NCBI GenBank assembly: GCA_051294905.1 | Contig: CM119372.1 | Location: 29,698,001 to 29,762,000 of the forward strand | Direction: 5' to 3' | From: Botryllus schlosseri | Taxonomy: Eukaryota | Length of the DNA stretch: 64,000 bases | Shown: positions 3,893-63,149 of the stretch, piece after piece | Layout of the letters: every line of letters begins with the position of its first letter | Numbering within the stretch: the first letter of the stretch is position 1 | Notes under the pieces: generated by a model | Database searches by the model: none | Seen by the model: only the letters and a program-made list of their open reading frames with translations | What the model was told of the DNA's origin: nothing | Position numbers and translations under genes: made by a program

Positions 3893-3978
3893 TGCACGCA
3901 TATGTACTCAAAGATTTTACTTTTATAAAATTTAATTTTTTCATAAGTCCACAGATATACTAACTAATTTATAATAAT

Positions 3979-7467: not shown

Positions 7468-7494
7468 ATTGTGAAATAATTACTGAATTATTGT

Positions 7495-7511
7495 AAAGGT
7501 AGAAGTGAGGG
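7495..7511 (+). promoter_or_regulatory. Polypurine tract (plus-strand primer) followed by LTR-like start TGTTAT at 7513
   Basis: aaaggtagaagtgaggg-t-TGTTATG, 28 bp after the last envelope-type ORF, the canonical PPT position. Confidence 0.65.
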
Positions 7512-12105: not shown

Positions 12106-12638
12106 CAGTGTTGGGATGACGAGTCAATTGGGAGAAATGTTTTGACTCGTGTCGCGAAGCAAAAATTTACGAGCCAATATCAGGTCATAGAATAAACGGT
12201 GTCAAATAGACCACTATAGCTTGTGTATACTCGAATTGTTTCCTCAGATCATAAATAAATTGACCGCAGATGAAACTATCACGACTTACGCTGTCATGGT
12301 AGTTATAAGGATTATTTTAGATAACAACATCTCTCTGTTTCATTAAAGGGCTCATTGCTTACGTTGTGCAGTGCGCACCCTTCTATATTTTGGTTGATAA
12401 TGTCTGACTGTAGCATTTATCTTTACAATTACTCACGAATTTTACTTGCGCGTGATTGATACAACATCTTTTGGCGCGTATAATTAACTATATGTTTGTT
12501 ATTTAATTCAATGTAGGTGCTAAAATTCAATTTGACTCGAGTCGATGCTTGACTCATGGCTTGACTTGGCCTGACTCGATTCAGGGTCAGCCATGACTCG
12601 AGATTACTGGTGACTCGAGGGAATTGATACCAACACTG
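12106..12638. mobile_element. hAT-type MITE (CAGTGTTGG...CCAACACTG, gactcga-rich) inserted in the giant element
   Basis: TIRs plus 8-bp TSD gtaggaag/gtaagaag; same family as 52959-53927. Confidence 0.85.
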
Positions 12639-15600: not shown

Positions 15601-17138
15601 AACAATCCACGGTAACGAGTATAAAATGGTGCAAATCATTAGTATGCGTAATGGGTCATGAATAATTTGCCGCAGGCAACAGCGATGTTGCAAATTGGAA
15701 AATTGACGTTTCCAAAAAGATATCATTTCTAATTATAAGTAAATAAGGTTACTAGCTTTACACCTGTTGTCAGGGTCTATCAAGTACTTGTGAATGTCGG
15801 CCCTAAACCTATAAAAGCTCTAATCAGCTAATTGAAATTGATAATAACTTGAGGCGCTATGATCTAATTTATTTAGTTTATTCTAGATGTTTTGTCGTCT
15901 ACTGGGGTCATTAACACCAGGCTGATATTGGTCTTACTTTTCCGAAACTATCGACTTATAGCTTGACCTACCGCTCGGATTTTGTGGGACACTGCTAACA
16001 CGGCATAGCGGGTGATGAGAGGTTTTTAGTTGTCCAATATTCATAACAAACGAGAAAGTGCGCATCTAGTCAGTAATTCCTCAATTTGCGCGCAGAACAA
16101 AAGGGATACGAACCCGAAAGTTCGGCCTAATTTATTGGAATTGTCACGTGAACACTAAGCAAGTAGGCACATCCGAGTCTATTTGCGATTGATGGTGCTA
16201 GTTTGAAATTGTCAACCCTAAAGAAACAGCGCGCGCCATGCGTTGAAGCTCTATTTCATATACTGACAGTTCATGATTTTTTGGGTATTAGGCCGTGCCT
16301 ACAATGGAAGTTGGCGACTTGGTGTTTTGATGAGATAGGAGGGATAAGGTTCAATGAAACTCTTTACTATATATAAAAGATTAAAAACAAATCACGCAGT
16401 AGTTAAAGGCCAGACATATGCTCCACGTAAGTCCTGGTCAGTCAGTCGGATATATAATGATCCATTACAACCTTAATAATACATTATTTCTACGGCCTGA
16501 TTAATAGAAGTAACAACATCAATGGGTTAATATTAAATCCGCGAAATAATTGTGTTTAATAGTGGATGTACAGCCACAAACTAGATTGCAGCATAGTAAA
16601 TTCTCACTCAAATTGAGGTATGAATGATTGATAACGGAATTTGATGACTTGTACTGCACGGTGCGATGTGTGGGCATCGGCTCCTGCGCAAATAGGTGTA
16701 ATTTTGTTAAAAATCAGGTATATGAACTATATGATGGTGTTCAGATTGTAATTGCTATAAACCAGACTATAATTACGGCACTCTATGACCATCAATTGGG
16801 CGGATGGCTGGGCTCTAAAGGACCCAGAATCATTTCATGAACTAGTATTGATCGTGGATGGTGACTTTGGAAAATTAAAAAACTTTTTTCGAAAAATTTT
16901 CGTGTAGTGAATGGTTTCTAGCCGTCAAATATCTCGAATGCACTATAAATATAGCAACAAGCATGTCGTCATTTAACATTACTATGCCACAGTTTATCAA
17001 CACTCGACAAAATAAATGGAGCCTTCCTGCTGGTTACTTGGAAAATTAATGACACATGGGCTTATTGCATTTCCACAGGCCTGGTATATATAAAGCCCAG
17101 TAACCACAATACATCTCCTTGTTGGTACAATTGTGGCC

Positions 17139-19283: not shown

Positions 19284-20156
19284 TTGAAGAAAGAAATGTG
19301 CTACGGGCTATTGTGCGACCCTAATACGGATCACAAGGTTGTCTACGAGTGGGCAATGCAGTTCGATCTTACGCAAAGGCAGCAGATAGTAATGGAAACC
19401 ATAAAAACTGCGCCGGTTCGGGATCGTTTGATGAGTCTCTTGTTCGGCACTTGTGAGCGGGACAATCCAAGGGTACAATATTGGCAACAATGTATGTACA
19501 CCAAGGAGGACTGGACAAAAATAGGAAAGCCTTTTCACCCGGTTGGGAGCGGTGAATGTAAACAATGTTACCTTATGAGACACGTAAAACCGTATTTCAA
19601 GAATACCGGGCAGATTTTGGAACTTATGACATTATGCCATGATTATTTAAAAGAAGCTTGTAGTATGCACAAAGGACTAGATCAAAACACCGAAAGAGAT
19701 AAAGGACATATAGTGCTTTATGTGTTATATCCAGAAGCGATAATAACCGCCATAGCTCTCCTGTTGCAACAATATCGGGGGGAAAAAAACATGCGAACAT
19801 TTTGTTTTACGAGATGTCGGATGGACGCAGAATTTGAGTTTCTATTTGGGGGAAATCTAGAACAATGGAGATTTACATACGGGTCCACGAGCACGTTTGG
19901 TTATTTGGGAGGCGTTTTTATTCTACCGATTGACCAAGTGTCGGAATCAACCTTTAAAAACTCGTTAAAAAAAGAGGGAGACAAACAAATAGTCAAAAAC
20001 ACCAATTCGGAAACTACCTTGATGTTTGATATTGAATCTTCAACCAGTAGAGACAGTAGGTTTCCAAACAGACCAGAGGCTCCGACCCGAATGGTAGCTT
20101 TACGGAGACCCAGTGTAGATGGATCCCATGCTGCCTCTAGTGGTAATATGGGCTGA
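19284..20156 (+). CDS. Cargo ORF, paralog family A (first ATG at 19296)
   Basis: NPRVQYWQQ and IVLYVLYPEAIITAIA match NPRLLYWKQ and LIMWIIFPEVQIYALA of 23296-23850. Confidence 0.7.
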   Translation: MKKEMCYGLLCDPNTDHKVVYEWAMQFDLTQRQQIVMETIKTAPVRDRLMSLLFGTCERDNPRVQYWQQCMYTKEDWTKIGKPFHPVGSGECKQCYLMRHVKPYFKNTGQILELMTLCHDYLKEACSMHKGLDQNTERDKGHIVLYVLYPEAIITAIALLLQQYRGEKNMRTFCFTRCRMDAEFEFLFGGNLEQWRFTYGSTSTFGYLGGVFILPIDQVSESTFKNSLKKEGDKQIVKNTNSETTLMFDIESSTSRDSRFPNRPEAPTRMVALRRPSVDGSHAASSGNMG

Positions 20157-21517: not shown

Positions 21518-22084
21518 ATGTTGGAATTTGATTATATTGAAGGTTACGATCCATCGAATTGGTGTCTTTTGTACGATGTATATGATGAATTGGATCTATT
21601 GAATCTGAAAGAATATAACAGCGAATATGAGAGATACCAGTTAAAAGAAAGAATATGGGAATTGCTTACGGACCGAGTTGATTGGGTTAAACAAACAGAC
21701 AATGGCCTAGCAGAGGCAGCCCTAGATGAGGAAATAACCCCAGAAATTTTTGATATATTCAATCGTGTGGTAGAAGAGATATTTGAAATAAGAGCGAAAG
21801 AATACACCTCTTTTGGAAGAAGAGTCATGTTGTATGAATTGATTAGAGGACTTGTGATGAAACTTACAAACACTAATATAACAAAGGATGTGTACCAGGA
21901 GAGAGAATATTGTAAAGATCCGCCACATATGGAACAATGGAATTGTCAAAATAATTTGGGAATAAAAGGCTATTCAAGTTCAATACATTGGCGAACAAAA
22001 AGGATAAGGCGAATAGAAATACATCCTTACCCCTACGAAAGGGAAAGTGTGAACATTGACTTTATAATACCGGAACAATCATGA
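21518..22084 (+). CDS. Cargo ORF, paralog family B
   Basis: RRVMLYELIRGLVMK...QNNLGIKGY matches RRVVYEVIRGVVMK...QKNLGVKGY of 25040-25753. Confidence 0.72.
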   Translation: MLEFDYIEGYDPSNWCLLYDVYDELDLLNLKEYNSEYERYQLKERIWELLTDRVDWVKQTDNGLAEAALDEEITPEIFDIFNRVVEEIFEIRAKEYTSFGRRVMLYELIRGLVMKLTNTNITKDVYQEREYCKDPPHMEQWNCQNNLGIKGYSSSIHWRTKRIRRIEIHPYPYERESVNIDFIIPEQS

Positions 22085-22181: not shown

Positions 22182-23231
22182 ATGAGTAAAATGAACCGAG
22201 TGGAACTACTAGTATTATGGCTGGGTATGTGTAATGCTATTTATCCGGAAACAATAGAACAAAAGAAGTGTACAACAGATGAAAGACGAACCATGTTATA
22301 CCCGGAATGCATGCAAGGAAGCAATTTGGTACTTTGGTGTGACCATTCGAGCTATACAAGAATTCCGGATCCTGATAAGATATACCTGGCAAAATCTTGT
22401 CGGAACACAGAAAAGATATTCATCAACGACAGCTGCCTACGGGAAATAACCAAAGAACAATTGGAAAAATATAAAGACATAGAGGTGTTACATTGTGGTT
22501 GGAATAAAATCCAAATACTACAAGGAGGTGCCTTCTGCAAAAATGAAAAACTCAGGGAAATAAACTTGATGCGAAACTACATCACACAAATTGAAAAGGA
22601 AAGCTTTTCAGGCTTACACCAACTCGATAGTTTGTATTTAAGCAGTAATTTACTGGCAGAGATAGAAGGATCGATATTTTCAAGCCTGGAAAACCTAAAA
22701 AGACTATATTTGGATAACAATGTCATAAAGAGACTAAAGAACGGAACATTCAATCATCTGCGTCGTTTAAGAATACTGGATTTATCAAGAAACGCAATAA
22801 ACGTTATAGAAGAAGGGGCGTTCAAAGGACTGAGGAAACTGGAAACTTTACATTTGGATGAAAATAGACTGGTTGAATTTGATATGACAATACTCGAATC
22901 TTTATGTAATTTAGAGAGATTAACGTTGTACTATAATAACTTACGATATTTTTCTCTGTCCTCCAACATCTCGTTCAAATATCTACATACTATTGATCTT
23001 AGTTATAATCATGTTCAATTTCTTAGTGATTCCCTATTGAAAAAATTACCAGATTTGGAGGTTTTAAAATTAAAAAGAAATAATAATGAAACGTCTACCA
23101 AAAGACCCTACGTGCGTAAACAATCGAGATTATATTATGCTGAGATGAAAAGTTTATCCCATTGTGTGACTATACATTCAAAAGGTGCATTTGCCTTTAT
23201 TGTTTGGCTAGTCACTATCGACCTGATGTAA
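22182..23231 (+). CDS. Secreted or membrane-anchored leucine-rich-repeat protein, intronless
   Basis: Signal peptide, Cys-containing LRR N-cap, about eight 24-aa typical LRRs (LxxLxLxxNxIxxI...F.gL), hydrophobic C-terminus. Confidence 0.88.
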   Translation: MSKMNRVELLVLWLGMCNAIYPETIEQKKCTTDERRTMLYPECMQGSNLVLWCDHSSYTRIPDPDKIYLAKSCRNTEKIFINDSCLREITKEQLEKYKDIEVLHCGWNKIQILQGGAFCKNEKLREINLMRNYITQIEKESFSGLHQLDSLYLSSNLLAEIEGSIFSSLENLKRLYLDNNVIKRLKNGTFNHLRRLRILDLSRNAINVIEEGAFKGLRKLETLHLDENRLVEFDMTILESLCNLERLTLYYNNLRYFSLSSNISFKYLHTIDLSYNHVQFLSDSLLKKLPDLEVLKLKRNNNETSTKRPYVRKQSRLYYAEMKSLSHCVTIHSKGAFAFIVWLVTIDLM

Positions 23232-23295: not shown

Positions 23296-23850
23296 ATGTT
23301 TAATATATTAGAATACGGTAAAAAAATTACTAAAAGTATCAAAATGTGTTTGGGATTGCGTTGTGATGATCCAGATATACAACATACGACGTGGATACCC
23401 CAAAAAGAAACACTAATAGACAACGGATTAAAGTCGCTGAAGTTTCTGTTGACAACATATTCACTGACGGATCACTTATGTGATATAATGTACGACGAAT
23501 TAAATCCACGACTACTATATTGGAAACAAAAGTATGGTGTCACAACATGCAACAATCATTGGCTTGGGAAACATCTGGTTGAAAATGAGTGGGAAGAAAT
23601 TTATACAGGAAGCATTTACCCTGAAAAACCTATACAAATGGCTTTTGCAGAAATTTGCATAAACTGGGTAACAATTTTAAAGAGAGTAAATCCTGAAATA
23701 AGGGAATTTCTAAAAAAGGGAGATTCTGAAAGAGATCTCATAATGTGGATAATCTTTCCGGAAGTTCAAATTTATGCATTGGCAAAGACGCAGGAAATAT
23801 CATTAAAGGAAGCCGATTGTAGATTTATGACTTTGAAAGTACCTGCATGA
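23296..23850 (+). CDS. Cargo ORF, paralog family A
   Basis: Shares two motifs with 19284-20156. Confidence 0.7.
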   Translation: MFNILEYGKKITKSIKMCLGLRCDDPDIQHTTWIPQKETLIDNGLKSLKFLLTTYSLTDHLCDIMYDELNPRLLYWKQKYGVTTCNNHWLGKHLVENEWEEIYTGSIYPEKPIQMAFAEICINWVTILKRVNPEIREFLKKGDSERDLIMWIIFPEVQIYALAKTQEISLKEADCRFMTLKVPA

Positions 23851-23918: not shown

Positions 23919-24866
23919 ATGAAGACTAAAGAACCCAGAAAAAGAAGAAATCTATTCAATCTTGCTCGATGTGGTATAATATCAAGTGAACGAAAATGTA
24001 TAAAGTTTTTGCGATCACGGAAACTCCTTGTTCAAAAGGCAACATGTTTTAAATGTGGACAACAAATGAATGAAGAAAAATGCAAAAGAACTATGGATGG
24101 ATATAGATGGAGGTGTCTGGTTTCAAAGTGCCGGACTACCACGTCCATAAGGAAAAGATCGCTATTTGAAGGAAGCAAAATAAGACTCACCCAACTTGTA
24201 ATGATGATTTATCTTTGGACCATAGATGCATCTCAACGACAAATAGCTTTTGAAGCACACGTCAGCAAGAGAACAATGGTGAATTGGACCAAGAAACTTC
24301 GTAAGATATGCTCTGGGGAGATGGAAAGAAGAGGTACTCTAATAGGGGGAATCTCACAAGGTAAATCACATGTAATTCAAATTGATGAGACGTTTGTGGC
24401 CAAAAGAAAATTTAATCGTGGAAGAATAATACGCCAACGCTGGGTTTTGGCTGGAATAGATATGAAAACGCGAGAAATGTTTGCAGAATTGGTACCTGAA
24501 GAAGGGAGAAAAACCTCTGTATTATCAGAAATAATTATGAAACACGTAAAAGAGGGATCCACTATATGGACTGATTCATTTGCCAGTTACCGCAAGTTGG
24601 AAAGCCTGGGAATGAATTATAAACATTCAATAGTTAATCATGATCGCGAATTTGTCACCCCAGAAGGCATAAATACACAATTGATCGAGGTGTCTTGGAA
24701 TTTTTTCAAAGCTGCTATTAGAAGACTGAATGGGGTATCAAGATCACATATTCCCCATTACTTACAGGAGTGGCTCTGGAAAAGAAGGGTGGCCTTGGAG
24801 GAAAGGTTTCAACTATTTTTGGAGATAATGGCCCTTGATCCTAACTTTAGGTCATTGGAACATTAA
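23919..24866 (+). CDS. Merlin/IS1595 (ISXO2-like) DDE transposase 2
   Basis: CFKC...WRCLVSKC, IQIDETF, IWTDSFASY, HSIVNH...TQLIEVSW; own ATG; clearly diverged from transposase 1; no flanking TIRs seen. Confidence 0.92.
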   Translation: MKTKEPRKRRNLFNLARCGIISSERKCIKFLRSRKLLVQKATCFKCGQQMNEEKCKRTMDGYRWRCLVSKCRTTTSIRKRSLFEGSKIRLTQLVMMIYLWTIDASQRQIAFEAHVSKRTMVNWTKKLRKICSGEMERRGTLIGGISQGKSHVIQIDETFVAKRKFNRGRIIRQRWVLAGIDMKTREMFAELVPEEGRKTSVLSEIIMKHVKEGSTIWTDSFASYRKLESLGMNYKHSIVNHDREFVTPEGINTQLIEVSWNFFKAAIRRLNGVSRSHIPHYLQEWLWKRRVALEERFQLFLEIMALDPNFRSLEH

Positions 24867-25039
24867 AACAATGTTGTCACTATGACCAGTATCATTCGAT
24901 ATAAGTGATTTGAATCTTTTGGGAAACAATATAGGCGTAGATGAGTATACTAGTGTTATAATCCACATGTTTATAAAGCTATGAAATGTTTCTATTTAAG
25001 TACATATATGAGTGAGAATTATAGAATAAGCATATTATT

Positions 25040-25753
25040 TTGTTATTGTGTCACAGTGGGATAATGTATTTATATGAAATAAGGAGTCATAATGCGACTA
25101 TTTTTCAAAACCTACTGACACAACTGGATGAGGTTGAACTAACAAAAAAACCTAAATTTCTCAGCGTCCTGATGAATGTGCTCAAGTCTTTTTTTGAAAA
25201 GGAACAAAATTGGTATAAGAGACCGAAAGCATGTGATGGTGATGAATCTTGTGCTTGGACGTCAGAAGAAGACACAGACAAAGATTCAAGCCCAGATGAA
25301 TTATATGAAACAGACTCCGAAGACTCCCAAGATTCTGCCATAGTGAAAAATTCATCTCAACAACAACGTGTAATAGTATGGAAAGAGCAGACGATACAGC
25401 CTGATGAAAATTCATGGACTATAATTACGGAAACACTATTGGGAGTAATCAGAAGAATACCACCCTCAGGAATAAGGCGAGTAGTATATGAAGTCATACG
25501 AGGAGTAGTAATGAAATATACCAGAATTTGGATATGCATAACTAATCTTGATTATGTGGAAAGTGCCAACTCCAAATGGTCATGGCACAGCCAAAAGAAT
25601 TTGGGGGTAAAAGGATATTTGGCATTGGATTATGAAACAACTGCTATGGAAGGATATATATATATTTACTCAAAAAGAGTGAATAGAGAAACTGAGTCGA
25701 TGAGACAATATCTGGAAAATTTTTATCATCTTGCTCATAATCCACATTATTAA
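25040..25753 (+). CDS. Cargo ORF, paralog family B
   Basis: See 21518-22084; carries an extra acidic stretch. Confidence 0.7.
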   Translation: MLLCHSGIMYLYEIRSHNATIFQNLLTQLDEVELTKKPKFLSVLMNVLKSFFEKEQNWYKRPKACDGDESCAWTSEEDTDKDSSPDELYETDSEDSQDSAIVKNSSQQQRVIVWKEQTIQPDENSWTIITETLLGVIRRIPPSGIRRVVYEVIRGVVMKYTRIWICITNLDYVESANSKWSWHSQKNLGVKGYLALDYETTAMEGYIYIYSKRVNRETESMRQYLENFYHLAHNPHY

Positions 25754-26014
25754 TGAGTAGGTTAAAACGCCTAAGCTATGGAATTAATGGAATCAATGTT
25801 AATTGTGAAAGTGATAAAATCCGTTATTAATGGGATAAATTTAAGATTGTGGAAAATTGAAATTCGATACATTGAAACTATTGTTATTAACATTTGTTGT
25901 TGCATGAAATTTTAATGGTCTTTGTTTTTCATTTAAGAACAGAATGTTTATGTGTTAATACTAGAATATTGGATTGGTATGATTGTATTTAACCATTTTG
26001 ATTGGTATTACTGA

Positions 26015-27765
26015 TTGCCTGTTCTGTCAAAAGCCATTATACCAAGAAGCAATCAATTTGAAACTATGGGCATTCTGATGAAAAGAGATCGTGATCCTCC
26101 TGGACATAATTGCATTTATATTCCACCTGGAGATCACCGGGTTGAGCATTACAGACTTGCAACGTTCAAACATTTTCCGAAAGAAATTCCTGTGATACCG
26201 AGTTATCTAGCCGCTGCTGGTTTCTATTGGACAGGATTTCAAGATAGAGTAAGATGTTACTGCTGTGGCGTATCTGTGGAAAAATGGGTCACTGGAGATG
26301 ATGCCTTTGATGACAAGTGGCATAAATCTACTTGTGACATGGTGACCGGACAACATGGTTATAACTTGCCTATTTCAAATTGCTCAAGGAGGCTCCTTTT
26401 TGAACAAATTAGGTGCCACCTTAACTTTACTACAAGAAGTCAGCAAACTAATCGGAATGTGCAAAAACCGACTATTAAAGAGGAAAAATGTCCATTACCG
26501 CAAACCGTGTTTGCGAACATTTGTGACCAAGAACATGAGACTTCATTGCGATCAGCAAATTTGAGAAGTGAACTAGAGAGAAGAAGAACCTTTGACAAAT
26601 GGCCTTCCTATCCTGCTCCATATTTGGTTGGGGAATTGGCAAAACAGGGATTTTTCTACCTAGGAAACCTTGACAGAGCGCAATGTTTTTCATGCTCAGG
26701 AGTACTGAGAAATTGGGCACCCACTGATAATGTTCTTGAACAACATAAAAGACATTTTATGCAAAAAAATGCAAAATGGCAAATAACGAGTATGCGGGAA
26801 ACATGTCCTTGACAGACTCCGAGAGAAATCAGGCAGATAATGAACTTAAAATAAAAATTGAAAGGTTAACTGCTAATAGGGGAGAACCTCCGGATCCATC
26901 GCCAGAAGAACAACTCCAGTTGGTGGAAAGATTCCCTTGCCTTTACCCGATAAATTTGCATATGACATCGTTACAGCAAAGAATATCTTCGTTTAATGAA
27001 AAATGGCCCAGGATCCTCGCAACAGCGGAACAATTGGCTAAAGCGGGTATGTATTATCTAGGGGATTCGGACAGAGCGAAATGCTTTTACTGCAATGGAG
27101 GACTACAAAACTGGAACTACAATGATGAGCCGTGGACAGAGCATGCAAAGTGGTTTCCTGGTTGTGAATATGTTTTGCAAATGAAAGGTATTAATTTCGT
27201 TTTACGACTAAGAGATGAACATCCCAATCTCAATCGACCATCGATAAGAAATGCAATATGTCTTGATGCACCACGAGAAGAGATACGAAGGAACCATAAT
27301 CGACCAAGGTTATCTGGACAATACATAAACAGGATGCAATTGGAAGACATGGGATTCACGAGAGATCAAATAGAAGGAACTATAAATAGACAAATTAATG
27401 ATCATTTCTCTACTGGTGACATAATCCAAGATTTACTGGAGACAGTGGATACAATCTCCACGAGTCCAATAAAAACAACACAACAACAAGTTCCCAGTAT
27501 GTCTGAAAATAAGCATGAAGTGAACAACAACAAAGAAACGAAAGAGGCAGCAGTTGCAGAAACAATGTCGGTGGATGAAATCGCGCAAAGTTTAAAAGAA
27601 ATACAAGAGGTGGTGCTTTGCAAAAATTGCAAGAGAAACAAAAGTGAAATTACTTTCATACCTTGTGGGCATTTATGTAGTTGTGAAAGATGTGCAACAA
27701 ACTCTGAGCGATGCAACATTTGTGGTGAAACAATACTGGAAAAGATAAAGGTGTATAGAGCTTGA
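26015..27765 (+). pseudogene. IAP: Inhibitor of apoptosis (3 BIR + UBA-like + RING), intronless, frameshifted at A7 run 26763-26769
   Basis: BIR1 RLATF...GFYWTGFQDRVRCYCC, BIR2 GFFYLGNLDRAQCFSC...EQH, BIR3 GMYYLGDSDRAKCFYC...TEHAKWFPGC, LEDMGF, C-terminal RING CKNC...PCGHLCSCERC...CNIC. ORFs 26015-26812 and 26776-27765 join at the end of BIR2. Confidence 0.92.
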
Positions 27766-27911
27766 TGGAGCAGGCAGGACTATTATTTTGTGGCATGAAT
27801 GCTCTTGATGCATATGTATAATACATGATGTTACTAGTTACTTTTGCGCGTATGAATCAATTATTCGTAAAATTGAACATATGATTTTAACGTACTTTAT
27901 TCTGTATTAAG

Positions 27912-28367
27912 ATGACTAGAGTATTAGAGAATTGGGAAATTACGCTAGCCAAGAAACAAATTAATGAATACTATGATGAATTTGAACAGGAATACCATCA
28001 TCAAAATTTTGAGATATGGAAAAATACCCCAAAGGAAAAATTCAAACAATTAATAAAGAAATACCTTCATCATTGTTTTGCGAATGTGACAGAAAAACTT
28101 TTTGATAAGCTTTATGACGCACATAGCGATATTGCTCGCGTTTTTGTTACAAAAGATTTTGATCTGGCCCAATATACATGGTTTGGACTTGTTCTAAAAC
28201 TACATCCGGCTCATAAATATCTACCAGAAGAATTTCTGGATGAAAGATTACCACAGATGGAATTGCAAGATTCTACAACATTACTTCTAAATGCTCGAGA
28301 ATTTGAAACTGTTGCTATTCCAATTTTAGAAGACGCTTTTTCCAAAATTGTTATACTGCACGATTAA
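27912..28367 (+). CDS. Cargo ORF, paralog family C (copy 1)
   Basis: F..Y...W...H..I...A...W...LHP...E motif shared with 28373, 30066 and 30610; closest to 30066. Confidence 0.75.
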   Translation: MTRVLENWEITLAKKQINEYYDEFEQEYHHQNFEIWKNTPKEKFKQLIKKYLHHCFANVTEKLFDKLYDAHSDIARVFVTKDFDLAQYTWFGLVLKLHPAHKYLPEEFLDERLPQMELQDSTTLLLNAREFETVAIPILEDAFSKIVILHD

Positions 28368-28372
28368 GAGGA

Positions 28373-28768
28373 ATGTCTCGAAGAACCATAAGTAACCAGG
28401 AATTATTGCAAATGGGACATGAATCTGCAGTGTGCGACTTGAAATATTATTTTGACATGTTCTGTAAATACTATGAAGAAGATGTGGAAATTTCCGACAG
28501 ATGGCAAAGATGGGCTATGACAAGACCCAATGACATTGTCAGAATGCTGACGCTGTATGTTGACAAAGTTTACGGAAGTGCCTTATCTCCTCAAGGCAAG
28601 GCTCTGGGATATCACGACGCTATTAAAGAACATAATCGGATTGCAATTATTACATTGGGAAACTATAAGGAAGCCAAATTCCTTTGGTACCAACATATTG
28701 TTCGTATGCATCCCATGAAGGAAAACGTTTCAGAACAATGGATAAAAGAATGTTTGAAAGATGATTAA
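28373..28768 (+). CDS. Cargo ORF, paralog family C (copy 2)
   Basis: GNYKEAKFLWYQHIVRMHPMKE matches GNYEKAKLLWFHYMARMHPMEN of 30610. Confidence 0.75.
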   Translation: MSRRTISNQELLQMGHESAVCDLKYYFDMFCKYYEEDVEISDRWQRWAMTRPNDIVRMLTLYVDKVYGSALSPQGKALGYHDAIKEHNRIAIITLGNYKEAKFLWYQHIVRMHPMKENVSEQWIKECLKDD

Positions 28769-28887
28769 CTAAAATTATGTATGTATTGCCTCGAATTTTC
28801 CACTACATCAATGAGTCGCATAGAATATTTCGTATAAAAAACCCTAATTTATGTAATTATGTTGGCTTGCTGATTAAGACTTGATGA

Positions 28888-29415
28888 ATGTTTAATGGTG
28901 TTTGGGTTTTTTGTGTAAGGAATTTTAAGACATTAGGAATTTATTTGATTTTTAATCGTGACATGTTGGAAGTCAATTATGAAAAGTATGAATATGTGCC
29001 CAAAGACCCACAGAAGAAAGAATTGAACCGAAAAAAGTTCAGACCGTGTCCATATCCTACGATACCTGACAGCAGAGTTGCCTGGCTAAGGATGGGAATT
29101 GTACATGAACGAATAAAAGAAAGGATCGAGAACTTTCCGACTATGACAGCCAATGACATGGAATACGTATTGAAGGATTTTCTTGTTTGGCTATACCGGG
29201 ACCATGAGGTGGTGGAACAATTGGAATGCGCCAGGAAGGTACTGAAGCGCATTGTGGAAGAAAACTTTGGAGAAAGTCCTGCATACTATTTGTATGTATT
29301 TCTACGATATGTGTTGGCTATAGCTAATGTTGACGAAGATTGGAACATTACTAGCAGAACTATTGCCGGCTTTTCACGAAATATGTATGTTATGGATAAA
29401 CGACTGAATTGGTAA
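28888..29415 (+). CDS. Cargo ORF, unknown (start may be the ATG at 28942+)
   Basis: 175-aa intact co-oriented ORF between family C copy 2 and the E2 gene. Confidence 0.6.
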   Translation: MFNGVWVFCVRNFKTLGIYLIFNRDMLEVNYEKYEYVPKDPQKKELNRKKFRPCPYPTIPDSRVAWLRMGIVHERIKERIENFPTMTANDMEYVLKDFLVWLYRDHEVVEQLECARKVLKRIVEENFGESPAYYLYVFLRYVLAIANVDEDWNITSRTIAGFSRNMYVMDKRLNW

Positions 29416-29473
29416 TGTTTCCCTTTCTTTTTATGTGTGTAAGTCTTACCGAATAATATAGAATCTACACCGA

Positions 29474-29929
29474 ATGGCAAAGCATAGATTACATTTTGAA
29501 AGGCGAAAAATCACTCAAGAAATTCAAACGAACCCTTTAATTTTACAAGCGGGGCCATTGGACGAATCGGATATCTATGTTTGGCAAGCACTTTTGCGCG
29601 GACCATCAAAGACACCATATGAAAGGGGAACATTCCTTCTGAGAGTTGAATTTCCAACGGAATATCCATTCAAACCTCCGAAGATTAAATTCGAGACCAA
29701 AATTTTCCATCCGAATATAAGCCGTAAGGGTACCATATGCATTGACATTCTTGCAAATGAATGGTCACCTGCTTTAACGTTGGGAAAAGTATTGGTCTCG
29801 ATTTCGTCATTATTGGCTTCCCCTAACCCAGAAGATCCAATGGATGTTGAGAGTGCCAGACTGTATCGGGATGACTACGAAAGTTATCAAAAGAAGGCAA
29901 TAAACTGGACTGATATGTATGCTAAGTAA
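29474..29929 (+). CDS. UBC: Ubiquitin-conjugating enzyme E2 (UBE2D/E-like), intronless
   Basis: GPSKTPYERGTF...YPFKPPKIKFETKIFHPNISRKGTICIDIL...WSPALT...PNPEDP; HPN motif and active-site Cys intact. Confidence 0.95.
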   Translation: MAKHRLHFERRKITQEIQTNPLILQAGPLDESDIYVWQALLRGPSKTPYERGTFLLRVEFPTEYPFKPPKIKFETKIFHPNISRKGTICIDILANEWSPALTLGKVLVSISSLLASPNPEDPMDVESARLYRDDYESYQKKAINWTDMYAK

Positions 29930-30065
29930 ATTGCTATGTACCTAATACGCTTATCACAATTATTGAATATTTTGGGAGTGTAATTATACTTATATGTGTT
30001 AAAAATGTTAGTAAGGAAAGTTTCCGGTCCAATAATCAACGTAAAATTCTCTATATTAAGAAAAT

Positions 30066-30521
30066 ATGGGGGATAAAATTGTTAGAGTAAAGCATGAACT
30101 TGACGTTTTCTTCGATTCCTTTGAAAAAAGATACGAACACAAAGACTTCAGCAGATGGGCTGCAACAACACGGGATGAACTGGAAACATTTATGACACCT
30201 TACTTGAGGATTTGCAACCTAAGAATATCCGATAAACTGTTCGATGCGCTATATAAAAAGCATTTAGCCATCTCCCGCATGATATTGTTTGAAAATTACG
30301 AACATGCCAAGTTTTGCTGGTTTGTTTTCTGTGTTGGATTACATCCTGCCTCGGATGTCATACCTGAAGAATGGGTGTTGGAAAGAATGCCTTGTTCTGA
30401 TAGAACCGGATTTTGTATTTATACCACTGATAAACTCTTTAATGATACTTTTCCCTCTGATGTAAGAGCTGCTATACTGATACATAAAATGAAATGTAAT
30501 GGCTGTAATTATGAACAATGA
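30066..30521 (+). CDS. Cargo ORF, paralog family C (copy 3)
   Basis: Same length (151 aa) and motifs as 27912-28367. Confidence 0.75.
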   Translation: MGDKIVRVKHELDVFFDSFEKRYEHKDFSRWAATTRDELETFMTPYLRICNLRISDKLFDALYKKHLAISRMILFENYEHAKFCWFVFCVGLHPASDVIPEEWVLERMPCSDRTGFCIYTTDKLFNDTFPSDVRAAILIHKMKCNGCNYEQ

Positions 30522-30609
30522 GTGCATGGATGGTATATTGTATTTTTTGCCAGGTTGAATGTCTATTAATCATCTGTGACGTGTATGACAACTATAGACC
30601 CTTACCTGG

Positions 30610-31089
30610 ATGATTAATTTCTTTCAGAAAATTAAAAGTATGAATAACGCGGAAGTAAATGATAAAGGTGATGTTGATGTCACCAAACTAGTTGGATCTA
30701 ATGTGGCGGAACAAGACTTGATCTTTTATTTTTGGTTATTCAAAGAACGATATGAAGCAGGAATACCTCCCTCTCATAGATGGTACGAGTGGTCAAGGAC
30801 CCCACCCAAATATATCAAACTTGGATTGAAATGTTTTTTCAAACGAGTTAAAGATACCCTTTCTGATGAGAAGCCCCTTGTTATTGACTACCAAGGAATA
30901 CTAGAAAACCATAAAATGATAAGAAACATGGCATCTGGAAATTATGAAAAGGCTAAACTTTTGTGGTTCCACTATATGGCTAGAATGCATCCTATGGAAA
31001 ACTTGATCAAGGATGAATGGGTGAAGGAACAAGCTGAATCCACGGAACCCTTTTACCCCGAGGATACTGTAAATGTCCTAGTCCTATGA
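30610..31089 (+). CDS. Cargo ORF, paralog family C (copy 4)
   Basis: Paralog of 28373-28768. Confidence 0.75.
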   Translation: MINFFQKIKSMNNAEVNDKGDVDVTKLVGSNVAEQDLIFYFWLFKERYEAGIPPSHRWYEWSRTPPKYIKLGLKCFFKRVKDTLSDEKPLVIDYQGILENHKMIRNMASGNYEKAKLLWFHYMARMHPMENLIKDEWVKEQAESTEPFYPEDTVNVLVL

Positions 31090-31380
31090 ATATGGTTAAG
31101 TTCATGAATAATATTGATTTCATGTATTCCTATTGCATGTGTATAAAGCGTTATAACTGGCCTACGGGATATAGAACGGTCAGAACCTCTATTGCGTCTT
31201 GCATAGAGTCATTTTATTGTATTTTGTCGCACAGAGAATTGATTCCGTCACGTTCACAGCTTATTGAATGGTTTGGTTAACCTACATTCAGAAATGTTTT
31301 ACAGTTTGTACTGATTATTGCCAATCGGTTGACTGCGAATTATGTTTAATACTGAGGGGCCTCGTCATCCCTACAGTATG

Positions 31381-32549: not shown

Positions 32550-35500
32550 ATGCGAAGGATGTTGAAAGCATTCAAAAGGAAAAAGTCGTCAGAAGCGACG
32601 GATGAACTCAAACAAGGTATTACCTTGCTTAAAGCGACACAAAAACGCCATGAAGATGTACGGCGACAAGAAAGACAACTGGCTAAGGACGTGGCTGAAC
32701 AAACAGAACTATTAAAAGAGGTAAAAACAGCTCTGCCGGAAACCATGAAAGGGTTAGAAAAGGCAAAAAAGGAGGTTCGAAAAGCTCAAGCGGACCTCAA
32801 AGCTGTTTGTGATGCCACAACAAAAGTTAGCGGGAAAGTCTCTACCGAGGTGCTAAATGACATTCTTACTTCAGAGTTTGAGCTCGGAAAGTCGCATGCA
32901 CAAGTTACGCGAGATAAGACCCAATCTCCCGTTTCGACGGTACTTCCAAATGCACCGGAATATGACCCTCCGGCATACGTTCCCCTCGATGAGCAGATGT
33001 CGGGTTACGTAAAACAAGGGCCAACGATGACGGTTCGTAAGGGTTTGGATTGCCACACTGTAACGGCCGTCTATCCCACGCTCCCGAAGCCCGAGTCAGT
33101 CGCATTGTCCGACTCTTTAAAGGAACCAGCGTCCTGTTTCCCTGTGGGCAGTGGTGTACGCGCCAAACACAAAAATGGAAACCCGGCAACGGCGGGAACA
33201 AGGACGGAACCTGCAAAAAGTTCCTTGAGTAAAAATAGGGGATATCAAGGTGGGCAAGAACGCCGCAATTTGGAGACAGAATCCCGTATAAATGCGGACG
33301 GCGCTTCCCAACGGGTAACCTTTCATAGTCCAGTCGAGGAACAATCTGACGCAGAAGACAGTGAAGTCGATTTTAATACTCGAATAAAGCGTCTTTCCCA
33401 AGACATAAGAGATAATATAAGGTCTCTACGGGGCGGTGCCAGCTCTCTGGATTCCGCGGAAGAATCTCGCGATATCTCTCGTTCTCCTGATACACCTCGC
33501 GCTACCTCCACTCCAAAAGAGTATGGGGGGAGGACTAGGCAACAACAACAACAACTACACGAACACTCTGGTATTTCAGCCCCATTACTCAATGTGTCTG
33601 CTAAAATCCAATCAGAAAAAGAAATGCTTCAGCTTATGATGGACCCAGGAGACATGCCATTACTAAAGTGGATGGAAAATTCGATGCGAAGAATACGCCA
33701 CGGTCCTGGAAATACGGATGTGGATGTTATTTTGGCTAATGCGCTGCAGAAGAAATTGAGGGCTGCTGGCCGACACAAACAGGCTACCCAACTGGGAAAT
33801 TTTTTTAATACCAATTCGGGAGAAGCAGAATGGGAATCGGTGATGCGATCTCTTTCCTTATCCAATCCCCAGGGTTTGGTAAATGATGAAAAGATCATTG
33901 GAGAATTCCGCAGAAACTATCGCTGGGAGGATGAGCCGCTACCTCTGTTGAATAGCGCTTTGAAGCAACTAGAAATAAACATGGATAGTCTTATTGAGGA
34001 TAATCCGGATGGATTGCGTCTTTTCCGAAATTTACGACAACGCCTTCCAGAAGCGCTCAGACTGATGTTGCGAGGCTGGGAAGAGGATAAAACTTGGCGG
34101 TACGTTGCGGAGGAACTACAACTTGTTTGGAATTCCGAGTTTCTGGATGAGCAAGAAACGCGCCCCAGGTATCAGGAAACAAAAGAAGTACGTGATATGA
34201 AACCGTCCTTGCCTCCTGTACACATTTACAATGTTCAACCTGCGGGGCAAATAGTGCACAGTTATCCCACTCATGGAAACGAGGACAGACAGCTCAACAC
34301 CCCTCCTCCACCTGGTGAAACACCACCACCGCCGGTGGTACAATCACCCTCGCCCCTGCAACCACTGAATAACTTTGGGGGGTCAACATCTCCTGGACCA
34401 CCTAGAGTGACCCCACCACGCCAACCTGACAATACAGGACAGGTTCCGATACGACGTCGTAATCCACAGCGTAATGCTCGCATTAATCGACCCCCTACTC
34501 ACATCATGAACGGTAATGGACCTGGTAGACGAGGACAATACTCAAGGGCCAGGCCAGTACAACAACAGAATGGGCGTACGGCATCAACGGGACCTAACGA
34601 ACAGCCAACGAGAATAACAAGATCTTCACGTGCTAGTCAAGGACCAGGAACCTCAAACCGAAGTCCGCGAATGACAAACACACAAGATTCCGGGATGGGT
34701 ACTGACAGCTCACAGATTACTCCGTCTAGCAGCCAGGAAGCCCGCAACATTGCTGACAGCCAAGGTGAGCGATACAATTTTCTTGGAAACCCGAATATTT
34801 TCGCTCCTCTAGGCTTGTATCTAAATCCCACTCAGGGACAATCGCTGTCCGTCTGTTATTACTGTAAGGCACCGGGACATCAATCCCGTAATTGCGTGGC
34901 TAAATTCATACTTTGGCTAAACGATAAGGTCCTTGCCAAAGATGAGGAATTAGGTTGGATAATTCGGGGGCGAGCGAGACCCGTACCGCCTCATGTGAAG
35001 GCATCGGCAGAACGTAATTGGAAACCTTTTCTTGAGAGAAATGGGATTCAGACAATTGAAGGTTTGGACCGGTATCTGGCTTTACATGGCTCTCCTTCTT
35101 TCGTGCAAAGAACCGCTCTGTGCGAAGCTTATTACGATACCCGGCCAAAAAGCCGAGATAGAACCCACTGGCATGACAGGGATCAATGGGGTCCTCATGG
35201 ACCACCTGCACGTTCCTCTGGGGGAAATATCCAAGTGGCCTGGGCGAAACCTCAATATCATGAGCGCTCGCGTCGTTATGATGCTTCATATTGGACAGAC
35301 GATGAGCTAAATCAAGGGGTACGACTTTCAAAAAAACGCCATGGGGTGCTGATTGATCCGGTGAATCAGCTCCCAGACAAATTGATATTTCAACACATAA
35401 AAACTGTACATAACTCTTCTTTACCCTTATTTACATTTCTTGATATGCCGGATGACCCTCTACAGCCCGATTTTACGGAATTGTTTGGTAGCCAACTGTT

Positions 35501-36974
35501 GTATTTGGTTGATACAGCAACTGGTACGAAATTCCTAGCTGACACGGGGAGCATCCCCAATTTAATAATGAAAAAGGTCGTTATAACTAAATATCCACAA
35601 AGCTGGGAGGAACGTCAACCAATAGATATGGAATTGACTGGAATAGGCGGCTCGTCCCAAGTGGACTCCTTTGTAGTGATTGATTTTGATGGACTGTCCG
35701 TTCCCTTTGTGACCGGACCAGGAGTCCCACTTAATATCATAGGGCTGAAATGGATTGAGGAAGTCCAACAATTACCAGGCATAACTACGGAATTCAAAAC
35801 CCCGTCTAACGCAAATGTGGAGTTGTCTTTAGTATCACTACTTGAAGAGAATCTTTGTGATCAGAGTAACGGAACCAAAGTCGAAAGCAGTATTAGCTAC
35901 ACTGCAACCGACGATGGGTTGATGGATGCTGCAAATCAAAGTAGCGTGGAGCGGAAAATTGCCGCTGGCGCGAGTACCGAGATGGAAATGACCACTGGTG
36001 CGAGCGACGAGTTGACATTAGCAACTAACGTCACACATAACCCATGGGAATCTATAGGTGTTGAGACAGGAATGCCTGCTGACACCGTAAATGAAGACGT
36101 CGAGCGTGGAATCCCCGCTGGCGTAAAGTTGGACCTGCACGAGAAAACGGGTCCTAAATGCTTGCGTGGATGCACTTGTCCGAATAACCTTAATGATTCG
36201 GCCCATAGCTGCATGACGACAGCCACAGTAATGAGTACTTTCCCAGAAGGTTCAAATCAAGCAGCAATTGCCGGTCAACCGGATACACATCCGGAAATGT
36301 CCGACAAGGAGTCTGGGGATTTTAGGATGCACGTCTCCCCAGAAAAAGGGTCCCCGGCGGAAAAAGAGTCCGTCGGCGTGGCGGTAGGTGCGGGCACGCG
36401 CCGAGATCAGAGGCCTACATTGAAGGACCTCACCCTCTCTCCACCAACACCGAAAACCCGGTCATCACGAATCTCAAACCAGCCTATGGTTGGGCCAGTT
36501 ACTACGTACGTTTTACAGAAAGACACTCACTCACGCGTCAAGACGGAGCTCGAAAATCTCTGCGCACAATCTGTAGCGCTGGCCAAACTCCCATACAAAC
36601 CTCCTGATCTGACGACTCCAGAAAATACCATTATCGCTGATGATGTCTGGAAAGCTATCTACGCACCGTTCGCGTCCGAACTCGAGGACCTACGGGGCCA
36701 CCTTGGCGCTCTACAAACCATGAAATACAAATGCGACATCGAGCTTAAAGATCCCTCGACGAAACCATTTGTGTCTGGGCCTTATAATCTGAAGGGGGAG
36801 GGCCAGGCAAAGGCATTGAAAGAAGCGGTAGATAACTTCCTGGACTTGGGCGTCATTGAACGAGGTTTTGCCGAATGGAAGTTGGCTATCTTCGTGGTCC
36901 CTCAGAAAATGAATGAGAGACAAAAACAGGAGGACGGATGGAAGCAAGCCTGGAGGGTAGTACAGAATCAATAG
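32550..36974 (+). CDS. gag-pol: Gag-protease-RT N-terminus polyprotein (Ty3/gypsy- or retrovirus-like)
   Basis: N-terminal coiled coil, PPAY (32967) and YPTL (33072), CCHC knuckle CYYCKAPGHQSRNC (34854-34895), protease LADTGS (~35538), RT start PYNL...LDLGVIE...WKLAIFVVPQK...WRVVQN. Confidence 0.9.
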   Translation: MRRMLKAFKRKKSSEATDELKQGITLLKATQKRHEDVRRQERQLAKDVAEQTELLKEVKTALPETMKGLEKAKKEVRKAQADLKAVCDATTKVSGKVSTEVLNDILTSEFELGKSHAQVTRDKTQSPVSTVLPNAPEYDPPAYVPLDEQMSGYVKQGPTMTVRKGLDCHTVTAVYPTLPKPESVALSDSLKEPASCFPVGSGVRAKHKNGNPATAGTRTEPAKSSLSKNRGYQGGQERRNLETESRINADGASQRVTFHSPVEEQSDAEDSEVDFNTRIKRLSQDIRDNIRSLRGGASSLDSAEESRDISRSPDTPRATSTPKEYGGRTRQQQQQLHEHSGISAPLLNVSAKIQSEKEMLQLMMDPGDMPLLKWMENSMRRIRHGPGNTDVDVILANALQKKLRAAGRHKQATQLGNFFNTNSGEAEWESVMRSLSLSNPQGLVNDEKIIGEFRRNYRWEDEPLPLLNSALKQLEINMDSLIEDNPDGLRLFRNLRQRLPEALRLMLRGWEEDKTWRYVAEELQLVWNSEFLDEQETRPRYQETKEVRDMKPSLPPVHIYNVQPAGQIVHSYPTHGNEDRQLNTPPPPGETPPPPVVQSPSPLQPLNNFGGSTSPGPPRVTPPRQPDNTGQVPIRRRNPQRNARINRPPTHIMNGNGPGRRGQYSRARPVQQQNGRTASTGPNEQPTRITRSSRASQGPGTSNRSPRMTNTQDSGMGTDSSQITPSSSQEARNIADSQGERYNFLGNPNIFAPLGLYLNPTQGQSLSVCYYCKAPGHQSRNCVAKFILWLNDKVLAKDEELGWIIRGRARPVPPHVKASAERNWKPFLERNGIQTIEGLDRYLALHGSPSFVQRTALCEAYYDTRPKSRDRTHWHDRDQWGPHGPPARSSGGNIQVAWAKPQYHERSRRYDASYWTDDELNQGVRLSKKRHGVLIDPVNQLPDKLIFQHIKTVHNSSLPLFTFLDMPDDPLQPDFTELFGSQLLYLVDTATGTKFLADTGSIPNLIMKKVVITKYPQSWEERQPIDMELTGIGGSSQVDSFVVIDFDGLSVPFVTGPGVPLNIIGLKWIEEVQQLPGITTEFKTPSNANVELSLVSLLEENLCDQSNGTKVESSISYTATDDGLMDAANQSSVERKIAAGASTEMEMTTGASDELTLATNVTHNPWESIGVETGMPADTVNEDVERGIPAGVKLDLHEKTGPKCLRGCTCPNNLNDSAHSCMTTATVMSTFPEGSNQAAIAGQPDTHPEMSDKESGDFRMHVSPEKGSPAEKESVGVAVGAGTRRDQRPTLKDLTLSPPTPKTRSSRISNQPMVGPVTTYVLQKDTHSRVKTELENLCAQSVALAKLPYKPPDLTTPENTIIADDVWKAIYAPFASELEDLRGHLGALQTMKYKCDIELKDPSTKPFVSGPYNLKGEGQAKALKEAVDNFLDLGVIERGFAEWKLAIFVVPQKMNERQKQEDGWKQAWRVVQNQ

Positions 36975-38737
36975 AAGTACCCCCACCTCTTGTACCGGAC
37001 GTAAAGCAGCTCGCCCAAGGCAGAGAAGTGCTTTCTCTACTAGATTTGAAGAAGGCCTATTTCCACATGGATGTAACGGAAAGATCTAAACAATATGTGG
37101 GTATAGCCATCAAGGGGATGCATGTAAGATGGCGTAAAATGCCGATGGGGCTTAAAACCGCTGTGGCTCTTTGGAGTGCGAATATGCAGGAATGCGTGGT
37201 GAAACCTATCACGGAAAATTATCGTAAATACATGAAGCAAAATGGTCGGTCGGATGAGGAGAATGCGACGCCTATGGAGGCCTACATAGACGACATTTTT
37301 CTTAGCACAAAAACGGTAGAAGATCACCTAATACTACTACGCATGGTATTTGAACAACTCGCCAAGATGAAACTGACGGTAAGCATCAATAAGTGTTTCA
37401 TTGGAAAACGAAGGGTGAACCTTTTGGGGGCAACCTTGACGGGGAAAGAAATTGAGGTTCAGCCCGAACGAATAAGGGCTTTACGCGAACTCTCGCCACC
37501 CCATAATGTATACGAGTTAAGGGGGTGGATTGGCGCGCTTCGCTATATCTCGGAGCATATACCTGAGTTAAGTTTGAAGCTGGCCAAATTCGATGCGCTA
37601 ACAGGCAAGGTCCCTGCGACACAAGGACGAGTGACGCCTGTGCTATGGACCGATGAATTACTGCAGGATTTCAAAATGACACAGGCAGCTCTTGATGATG
37701 CTAAGGTCTTGTACCATCTAGATCCAAATCTTCCCATTTTTGTGGAAACAGACGCCTCAGATGTTGGATTTGGGTCAATCATTTTCCAGACGGAAAAAGG
37801 GTGTAAACCGCCTTTCGAAAAGGTTTACCCAATCGCTTATTACAGTCAGAAGTGGGTAACTCCAGCGGCAAAAGCCTATGATCCGTGCACAAAGGAATTG
37901 AAAGCATTAAAGGATTCGGTTGAAAAATGGCAGTCAATGTTGAGAGCCTTATCCTTTACAATAATCACTGATAATACTGGGGTATTTGGGCTCCTCAAAA
38001 GAATGACGGATAAAGCGAAAAATCCAAGCCCAAAACCCCTGATTCAAAGGTGGCTCAATCATCTCGCAGGATTCCAAATAAAAGAGGTAATTCATTTAAG
38101 TACGATGCAGGTATTTACGTCGGATGGATTGTCTCGATCTTATTGGATGGAAATGGCTGCGGGAGAAGATGATCCACATGTTTGGGCAACGATTCCTAAG
38201 GAAAAAAGCGTTCCGTACCAGCAAAAAATACCTCGACTGGAAAAAATACAGCACAAATTGATGGCCCATTGTCGACACGAGCCTTGTAACAAATCGGTGG
38301 ATGGGTACCACCCCTGGGAAGATATTTGTGAGATCATTAAAATAAAAATCGGGGTGGAAATGGAAATTGAAGAATTAAAAGATGTCATGAAAAGGTGCGA
38401 CAGAGCAATTGTCTCAGAAAATGGATTGGCGGCTGCCCACGGGCATACACAAGGGAAGCCTCCTCAATATTGTAAATATGAAGGTAACGAGGTGTTGTAC
38501 CACATGACGACCGAAAACAATGCAGGACAGATAATGTCCGCGGGCATTGAACGGATGAACAGGAGATTCATTCATTTGAGCAAAACGCTAACGAAGAAAA
38601 GTAAAAGGCGGAATGTGGTAATTTGCCTGAAAGCAGCAGATCTAAGGAATGAGGGACTCGTATTGCTGCAATCAAACGTACAAGACGTGGTATTGTGTGA
38701 AGGCCCTATACCACCCACGATCATACAAAAGATGTAA
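36938..38737 (+). pseudogene. pol: Remainder of pol: RT, RNase H and ~200-aa C-terminal domain; no integrase; out of frame with the upstream ORF
   Basis: LDLKKAYFHM, MPMGLKTA, YIDD (37283-37294), FVETDASDVGFG, KELKAL, ITDN, SDGLSR. No HHCC or D,D35E motif before the stop or before the right TIR. Confidence 0.9.
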
Positions 38738-39010: not shown

Positions 39011-39018
39011 AAGAGTTG
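39011..39018. repeat. Target-site duplication, right copy (aagagttg); 7 nt of the left copy visible at 1-7
   Basis: The 7 visible bases left of the left TIR (agagttg) equal 39012-39018. The first base of the left copy lies outside the window. 8-9 bp TSDs are typical of Merlin. Confidence 0.8.

Positions 39019-51900: not shown

Positions 51901-63149
<11,249 letters not shown>

Follow-up and report, generated by a model that had tools for sequence, protein, structure and literature searches.

The window analyzed here is a 64,000-nucleotide stretch of the Botryllus schlosseri genome (contig CM119372.1 of assembly GCA_051294905.1), and its positions 8 to 39010 are taken up by a dispersed 39-kb element that bears a reverse transcriptase (RT) gene together with a gene for an inhibitor of apoptosis protein (IAP) and a gene for a ubiquitin-conjugating enzyme (E2). 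The element and all genes and domains located in it below lie on the plus strand. The initial annotation, made from the sequence alone, had read the two genes as a possible matched pair of ubiquitin ligase (E3) and E2, consistent with capture by the element's own RT, that may block the death of infected cells. Our analysis confirmed both genes and their place on a mobile element but did not support the matched pairing.

The IAP and E2 genes and their copies

The IAP gene extends from an ATG at position 26066 to a stop codon ending at 27765, within a frame open from 26015, and has the layout BIR1-BIR2-BIR3-UBA-like-RING in a single exon. The frame of the window copy is broken into open reading frames (ORFs) of 248 and 329 amino acids (aa), and Pfam assigned two BIR domains to the first and one BIR plus a RING to the second; an open copy elsewhere in the genome encodes 564 aa with three BIR domains (E value of 3.9e-59) and a RING. 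BIR1 (26144 to 26341) has the ascidian-type shortened H-x3-C spacing seen in most ascidian BIR1 rows of our alignment. BIR2 (26564 to 26770) contains the frame break at its end (approximately 26760 to 26770), which leaves the first ORF without the last zinc ligand, and BIR3 (26965 to 27174) has canonical spacing and keeps the motif GGLxNW...D..W.EH..WFP, which we take to be the peptide-binding groove. According to the alignment, groove motifs are retained in both BIR2 and BIR3. Pfam returned no UBA domain, neither in the window ORFs nor in the open copy. The MGF..LL segment of the region from 27307 to 27456 aligned with UBA-bearing ascidian IAPs, the region scored 15.1 bits against a profile of seven ascidian UBA regions (best of 500 shuffles, 7.4 bits), and the structure model placed three helices at residues 413 to 462; alignment, profile, and model together lend weak-to-moderate support to a three-helix UBA-like domain between BIR3 and the RING. 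The C3HC4 RING itself (27616 to 27726; PF13920) has complete zinc ligands, the terminal aromatic residue, and noncanonical residues at its E2-contact positions (Asn, Asn, and a linchpin Gly), and its best solved matches are the RINGs of cIAP2, cIAP1, and XIAP.

The three-BIR/UBA/RING description of the protein was thus borne out. Its label of "cIAP/XIAP-type" survived only in its XIAP part: Pfam detected no CARD in the open copy, the interval between UBA and RING being a 40-residue low-confidence spacer in the model, and the layout is therefore XIAP-like, which rules out the cIAP label. The closest relatives are ascidian IAPs, led by those of Styela clava at 41 to 45% identity, and identity to a host gene on chromosome C12 is 59%. 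Like cellular XIAP/DIAP2-type IAPs and the styelid clade, the element protein combines three BIRs, a UBA-like domain, and a RING; unlike them, it is intronless, multicopy, and element-borne, with Gly or Asp as the linchpin residue.

The E2 gene (29474 to 29929; catalytic Cys codon at 29738 to 29740) follows after a gap of 1,708 bp that holds three other ORFs, in agreement with the 1.7 kb first reported. It is likewise a single exon, as had been noted for both genes, and encodes 151 aa with a UQ_con domain (E value of 1.6e-47). The protein consists of the UBC core only and keeps HPN, catalytic Cys89, YPFKPP, and WSPAL, as class I E2s of the UBE2D (UbcH5/Ubc4) type do; these motifs (HPN, the catalytic Cys, and the two loops) are identical in all 25 open copies. 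Of its first label, "UBE2D/E-like," the UBE2D half holds, UBE2D2 being the best solved relative, and the UBE2E half is ruled out by this match and by the lack of an N-terminal extension. However, the element E2 is not a UBE2D ortholog proper. A tree with the host genes placed it within a divergent host array, apart from the canonical host UBE2D genes, which form a separate starred clade and are only about 50% identical to it. This expanded, divergent clade has an altered first helix, and the element E2 carries Gln at the position of UBE2D Ser22, presumably the backside-ubiquitin site. No ascidian was named among the 80 candidates examined in an E2 homolog search.

A DNA search of the B. schlosseri genome yielded 44 matches, 21 of them near full length at 89 to 100% identity. 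Over 28 loci of subfamily A, the IAP gene was open at 20, broken at 4, partial at 3, and absent from 1 (20 of 24 whole copies open), and the E2 gene was open at 25, broken at 1, and absent from 2 (25 of 26 whole copies open), so the condition named as refuting the original proposal, genes dead in all copies, does not apply. Among open copies, the pairwise ratio of nonsynonymous to synonymous divergence (dN/dS) was 0.18 for the IAP and 0.10 for the E2, and six neighboring genes gave 0.13 to 0.23. By part of the IAP, the ratio was 0.09 for BIR2, 0.13 for both BIR3 and the UBA-like domain, 0.17 for the RING, and 0.41 for the spacer. Both genes are also open, in the same order, in the two copies of subfamily B, which differs from subfamily A by a dS of 1.3 to 1.8 and a dN of 0.13 to 0.21. 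Collectively, these data revealed that both genes are genuine cargo of the element, with intact frames in the majority of copies and purifying selection acting on each; that they sit on an RT-bearing element, as first proposed, is further confirmed by the element ends, the 8-bp target-site duplications, and the 44 DNA matches. The copies are mosaics, with distance correlations between neighboring genes of only −0.04 to 0.63, which suggests frequent recombination between element copies.

The break in the window's IAP frame had been attributed to slippage or a sequencing error in a run of seven A residues. At this site, the window copy is several bases longer than all 22 other measurable copies (28 loci were compared, of which 5 did not cover the site), and every contig that bridges the site in four sequencing runs has the common form, the window form occurring in none. 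A one-base slip in the A run is thus ruled out, since the difference is several bases long and private. The contigs are compatible with both a private insertion and an assembly error, because contigs drop rare variants.

Origins and transcription of the two genes

A host gene on C12 matches the element IAP protein with nine exons in order; the search did not locate its first coding exon, which would contain the start codon. All eight introns of this gene are GT-AG, and the element IAP runs straight across each of the eight positions. In a tree of 29 proteins, five element IAP rows were sister to the C12 gene (support of 96/93). The loss of all eight introns, together with this sister position, identifies the element IAP as a processed gene copy derived from spliced host mRNA. 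For the IAP, the possible objection that the host ortholog is itself intronless therefore does not apply. The clean loss of eight introns is direct evidence of passage via spliced RNA and bears on how the carrier acquires genes.

The part of the original proposal that credited the element's own RT was not supported. The IAPs of Maverick and foldback elements likewise run across the six host intron positions that they span, and no RT gene was found on these IAP-bearing elements. Sources are cited here by PubMed Central (PMC) identifier; among them, LINE-1 is described as writing spliced host genes into poxviruses (PMC9973261), and intronless dispersed IAP duplicates as common in animals (PMC13159474). 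The RT that made the IAP copy may have been that of the element or that of a host long interspersed element. Because synonymous divergence from the host genes is saturated or nearly so, it yielded no dates for the captures.

Two further groups of IAP sequences were observed. RING-less three-BIR IAPs are carried by Mavericks and, arranged as inverted pairs, by foldback elements, the latter in dozens of copies; these IAPs form the sister group to the C12 host gene and the element IAP together. In other RT subfamilies, IAP remnants lie just upstream of gag; most are internally deleted, so that UBA and RING directly follow the beginning of BIR1. The host gene gives these deleted forms a slightly better score than the element IAP does, and they possibly represent a separate capture.

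The relatives of the E2 are found on C1 (34.12 to 34.50 Mb) in a tandem array of approximately 20 intronless UBE2D-like genes that are 52 to 82% identical to the element E2, the nearest at 79 to 82%. A 48-protein tree grouped the element E2s with genes at one end of the array (support of 88/90, unstarred), and a single branch set the array apart in 0% of 200 bootstrap replicates. The simplest reading is that the E2 was captured from the C1 array, although a transfer in the opposite direction, from element to array, is conceivable for the array-end genes. Similarity to the array stops within approximately 14 bases of the coding sequence, and neither a poly(A) remnant nor a shared flank was found at the E2. 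Introns are also absent from the canonical host UBE2D genes on C6 and C9, and since the parent genes themselves lack coding introns, the missing introns of the E2, which had been taken as a sign of capture, are uninformative. The objection that host orthologs might be intronless and syntenic at this locus thus applies to the E2 in its first half but not in its second.

E2s of this clade are also found in two Maverick families, close to one end of the Maverick. Both families have an integrase-chromo gene and one has an A32 ATPase, and they comprise approximately 11 and 9 to 12 near-identical copies. A single clade of Maverick and element E2s was rejected (approximately unbiased [AU] test, P = 0.0003), which rules out one shared origin, and the C1 array is, as judged by these trees, the source of at least two separate E2 captures by mobile elements. 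A natural experiment is thus at hand, in which unrelated mobile elements have taken up one IAP clade and one E2 clade, each more than once. This points to some value of one divergent E2 clade for mobile DNA.

Transcription was examined in two single-cell sequencing runs (3 to 4% of each), which gave 52 and 170 reads on positions 25000 to 31300 at 88% identity or more. The reads mostly had their second mate on the coding strand, a small pile lay just past the IAP stop codon, and 47 of the 52 reads of one run fitted only partly. Reads on the IAP do not come from the C12 host gene, because its DNA identity is only 68 to 70%, and the element IAP is probably transcribed at a low level. In the central part of the E2, the reads have four variants that occur together in none of the 25 element copies but are found in three of the five nearest array or haplotig genes checked and in one more distant gene. 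These are therefore host reads; for this reason, and in view of the partial fits, we did not accept the bulk RNA data as evidence that the element E2 is expressed.

Possible pairing and functions of the IAP and the E2

The element RING departs from the RINGs of cIAP2 and XIAP where contact with an E2 would be made. Its linchpin residue is Gly in all 20 open copies and Asp in subfamily B, compared with Lys in the host C12 gene and Arg in cIAP2. The residue before the second Cys is Asn in 19 copies and His in 1 (Val/Ile in cIAP2/XIAP), and the last CxxC holds Asn in 20 of 20 (Pro in cIAP2/XIAP). We take these two positions to be E2 contacts; with the usual residue at neither and no cationic linchpin, the element RING lacks these features of a canonical UBE2D-using RING ligase. 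At the linchpin position, Arg is reported to work best with UBE2D2 (PMC12326332).

The two genes also occur separately. No IAP lies between the ends of the two Maverick families that carry this E2 clade, a RING-less three-BIR IAP is present at two Maverick loci and at three foldback loci, and no E2 was found near the IAP remnants of other RT subfamilies in the seven stretches read. On the side of a pairing, of the 54 RT matches at 83% identity or more, 28 had an E2 match within 15 kb upstream, and one more had it at 35 kb (hand count); all 10 other RT relatives sampled were without an E2 in the 20 kb read. The donor genes lie on different chromosomes, C12 for the IAP and C1 for the E2, with no shared flanks beyond approximately 14 bases. 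Over 16 copies in which all seven genes compared were open, the distance correlation of IAP and E2 was 0.44, within the 0.32 to 0.63 obtained for the IAP with five other neighbors, a weak test in that subfamily-A alleles hardly differ at the RING-E2 interface. Collectively, the noncationic linchpin in 20 of 20 copies, the presence of each gene alone on other elements, and the ordinary co-inheritance of their alleles do not support the matched E3-E2 pair of the initial annotation, and we regard that idea as weak.

The reading that we favor, with a probability of roughly 0.55, is that two host genes from separate captures are both under selection, the IAP as a survival factor driven by BIR2 and BIR3 and the E2 as a partner of other ligases. 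The two would have been taken in separate events, probably from C12 and C1. The element IAP would keep the host cell alive by binding caspases or IAP antagonists through BIR2 and BIR3, and its RING could be a weak ligase kept for dimerization, which would mean less self-ubiquitination and a stabler IAP. The intact E2 would feed host ligases other than the element IAP. That the BIR domains are the selected part is suggested by the tendency of element-borne IAPs to lose or weaken their RING.

Several points weigh against this reading. The order of the two genes is the same in subfamilies A and B despite a dS of 1.3 to 1.8, which implies that they have long been kept together; constraint on the RING (dN/dS of 0.17) is on a par with that on the BIRs; and the E2 retains its YPFKPP and WSPAL loops, which presumably dock on RINGs. 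RNA support for the element genes is thin and, for the E2, rests on a few 3′-end reads. Furthermore, XIAP is a ligase even with Tyr in place of the linchpin Arg (PMC12326332), and tunicates are described as lacking caspase-9 and Apaf-1 (PMC13159474). Part of this evidence would also suit a matched but noncanonical pair, in which a divergent host RING clade and a divergent host E2 clade fit each other and the element took both for private ubiquitination of death or defense proteins. Both genes do come from divergent host clades, the RING type being common to Styela IAPs and the C12 gene and the first helix of the E2 being altered; the gene order shared by subfamilies A and B and the constraint on the RING point the same way, and in the RT-bearing stretches read the E2 appears only in the sublineage with a full-length IAP (28 of 54, versus 0 of 10 others). 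We nevertheless consider such a pair possible but doubtful, because the element, with Gly or Asp at the linchpin, has departed more from a cationic residue than the host gene with its Lys, Mavericks took the E2 clade alone while RING-less IAPs spread widely, alleles show no special co-inheritance, and three unrelated ORFs separate the genes. A bolder version, in which the carrier is a new type of enveloped, integrase-less RT virus that integrates by a Merlin-type transposase and runs its own circuit, with a noncanonical IAP RING and a divergent E2 that were taken from two host loci and work only together and outside the host UBE2D pool, seems unlikely to us; if true, this would be the first case of a retroelement equipped with both an E2 and an E3.

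Alternatively, the cargo might tune innate immunity of the NF-kB type and not apoptosis, the IAP acting as a scaffold or dominant-negative partner through BIR1, UBA, and RING and the E2 redirecting host ligases. BIR1, UBA, and RING are all constrained, the block also includes a leucine-rich-repeat gene, the likewise three-BIR-RING protein DIAP2 of Drosophila serves mainly NF-kB-related immunity (PMC13159474), and the E2 I215L of African swine fever virus (ASFV) acts through host ligases against interferon signaling (PMC10459248). However, BIR2 is the most constrained part of the IAP (0.09) and BIR3 is among the most constrained (0.13), and other elements spread RING-less versions that keep only the three BIRs, which makes immune tuning quite improbable. 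The remaining view takes both genes for neutral hitch-hikers, picked up by chance and merely copied along. Although approximately half of the close RT-bearing relatives lack the genes and IAP remnants decay in other subfamilies, a dN/dS of 0.10 to 0.18 in subfamily A and a dN of 0.13 to 0.21 against a dS of 1.3 to 1.8 between subfamilies A and B largely refute neutral carriage, and we rejected it on these values as very improbable.

The capture of anti-death genes is already known from DNA viruses, Mavericks, and the planarian Burro elements. The latter are giant Gypsy-like retrotransposons with long terminal repeats (LTRs) and resemble the present element as giant RT elements with env homology and BIR, BCL2-like, MATH/TRAF, and RING domains; they differ in having LTRs and an integrase and in placing most such domains in one polyprotein, and the accessible text names no E2 (PMC6431247). 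In contrast, the element described here carries a whole three-BIR-UBA-RING IAP and a stand-alone E2 as separate genes. ASFV likewise unites an IAP homolog, A224L, and an E2, I215L, in one mobile genome (PMC10459248). A224L binds caspase-3, and I215L works with host ligases (PMC10459248; PMC7771050). ASFV is, however, a large DNA virus, and the accessible text gives no interaction between A224L and I215L (PMC10459248), which makes it a precedent for co-carriage without pairing. Adintoviruses and Mavericks, virus-like animal elements, have IAP and Bcl2 homologs (PMC8502044), and the Mavericks of this genome likewise carry host anti-apoptotic genes; unlike the present element, they replicate as DNA, and those found here hold a RING-less IAP or an E2, never both. 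Our literature search, whose scope left out most subscription papers, brought up no report of this carrier or of an RT element that combines a complete IAP gene with a stand-alone E2.

The carrier element and its other genes

The carrier is a stranger object than its IAP and E2 cargo. Its ends, imperfect inverted repeats of approximately 10 bp (GG...CC), were placed at the edges of homology with five other copies, of which four start and five end at positions corresponding to 8 and 39010. An 8-bp target-site duplication flanks the element; the right copy occupies 39011 to 39018, and the left copy consists of the base preceding the window and positions 1 to 7. Such duplications were present in all five copies with both ends available. 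The first ORF of the element (407 to 1246) encodes an ISXO2/IS1595 (Merlin-type) DDE transposase (PF12762, E value of 3.7e-10), and a second ISXO2/Merlin-type transposase is encoded at 23919 to 24866 (PF12762, E value of 2.6e-18). The carrier thus has an ISXO2-type DDE transposase, inverted ends, and 8-bp target duplications, all as in Merlin/IS1595 elements; we take duplications of 8 bp and GG ends to be typical of Merlin. Self-comparison of six regions revealed no terminal direct repeats, hence no LTRs, and Pfam found no retroviral integrase (rve) in the window pol, which together rule out a Metaviridae/LTR retrotransposon.

The region from 32550 to 38737 encodes gag (with a CCHC knuckle), a protease-like motif, RT (YIDD), RNase H, and Tpt1/KptA; Pfam assigned the RT, RNase H, and Tpt1/KptA domains of pol and no integrase. 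Among the database matches listed, the 120 longer proteins share no more than 29% identity with the RT-RNase H part. The Tpt1/KptA RNA 2′-phosphotransferase domain (38240 to 38737; PF01885, E value of 5.8e-11) occupies the place after RNase H where an integrase usually lies. Two genes for putative env-like membrane proteins (1376 to 7467) were recognized from the ORF lists and had no Pfam hit; their label derives from signal-like N termini and C-terminal hydrophobic stretches. The first of them is split in the window copy and open over 838 aa in all four other copies. The gene order of the element is a circular permutation of the retroviral order: read as a circle from the long noncoding stretch, it runs through the accessory genes, gag-pol, the element ends, the transposase, and the env-like genes. 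This order would be compatible with an intermediate of circular DNA that is opened at the inverted ends. The closest likeness in build is to Teratorn, a herpesvirus fused to piggyBac, which also combines a virus-like gene set, integration by a cut-and-paste transposase, short inverted ends, and captured host genes (PMC6431247). According to the same source, Teratorn is a DNA virus with piggyBac, whereas the present carrier joins gag-RT-RNase H to a Merlin/IS1595-type transposase and 8-bp duplications.

The ORFs around the E2 include four paralogs of an orphan family that flank it, two upstream (27912 to 28768; 151 and 131 aa) and two downstream (30066 to 31089; 151 and 159 aa). They are predicted to be all helical in a confident model (pLDDT of 90). 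No solved fold matched the family, the Bcl-xL and Mcl-1 rows (TM score of approximately 0.2, E value above 2) being noise; there was no Atlas hit, and four relatives were found among 1.84 billion proteins. Between the upstream pair and the E2 lies another orphan ORF (28888 to 29415) of 149 to 188 aa, depending on the copy, which is open in 25 of 26 whole copies with a dN/dS of 0.18. The leucine-rich-repeat accessory gene is located at 22182 to 23231 (LRR_8, E value of 4e-63).

Further features of the window were noted. The stretch from 7468 to 17138 (approximately 9.7 kb) contains no ATG-started ORF of at least 80 aa and is partially conserved between copies, at 68 to 92% in blocks. The ORFs at 19296 to 20156 and 23296 to 23850 gave weak matches, below the cutoff, to the PWWP3A/B C-terminal domain (PF20886), and the ORFs at 21518 and 25064 are paralogs of one another. 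Outside the carrier, positions 52104 to 54736 hold a host foldback element with 785-bp arms that are 92% identical.

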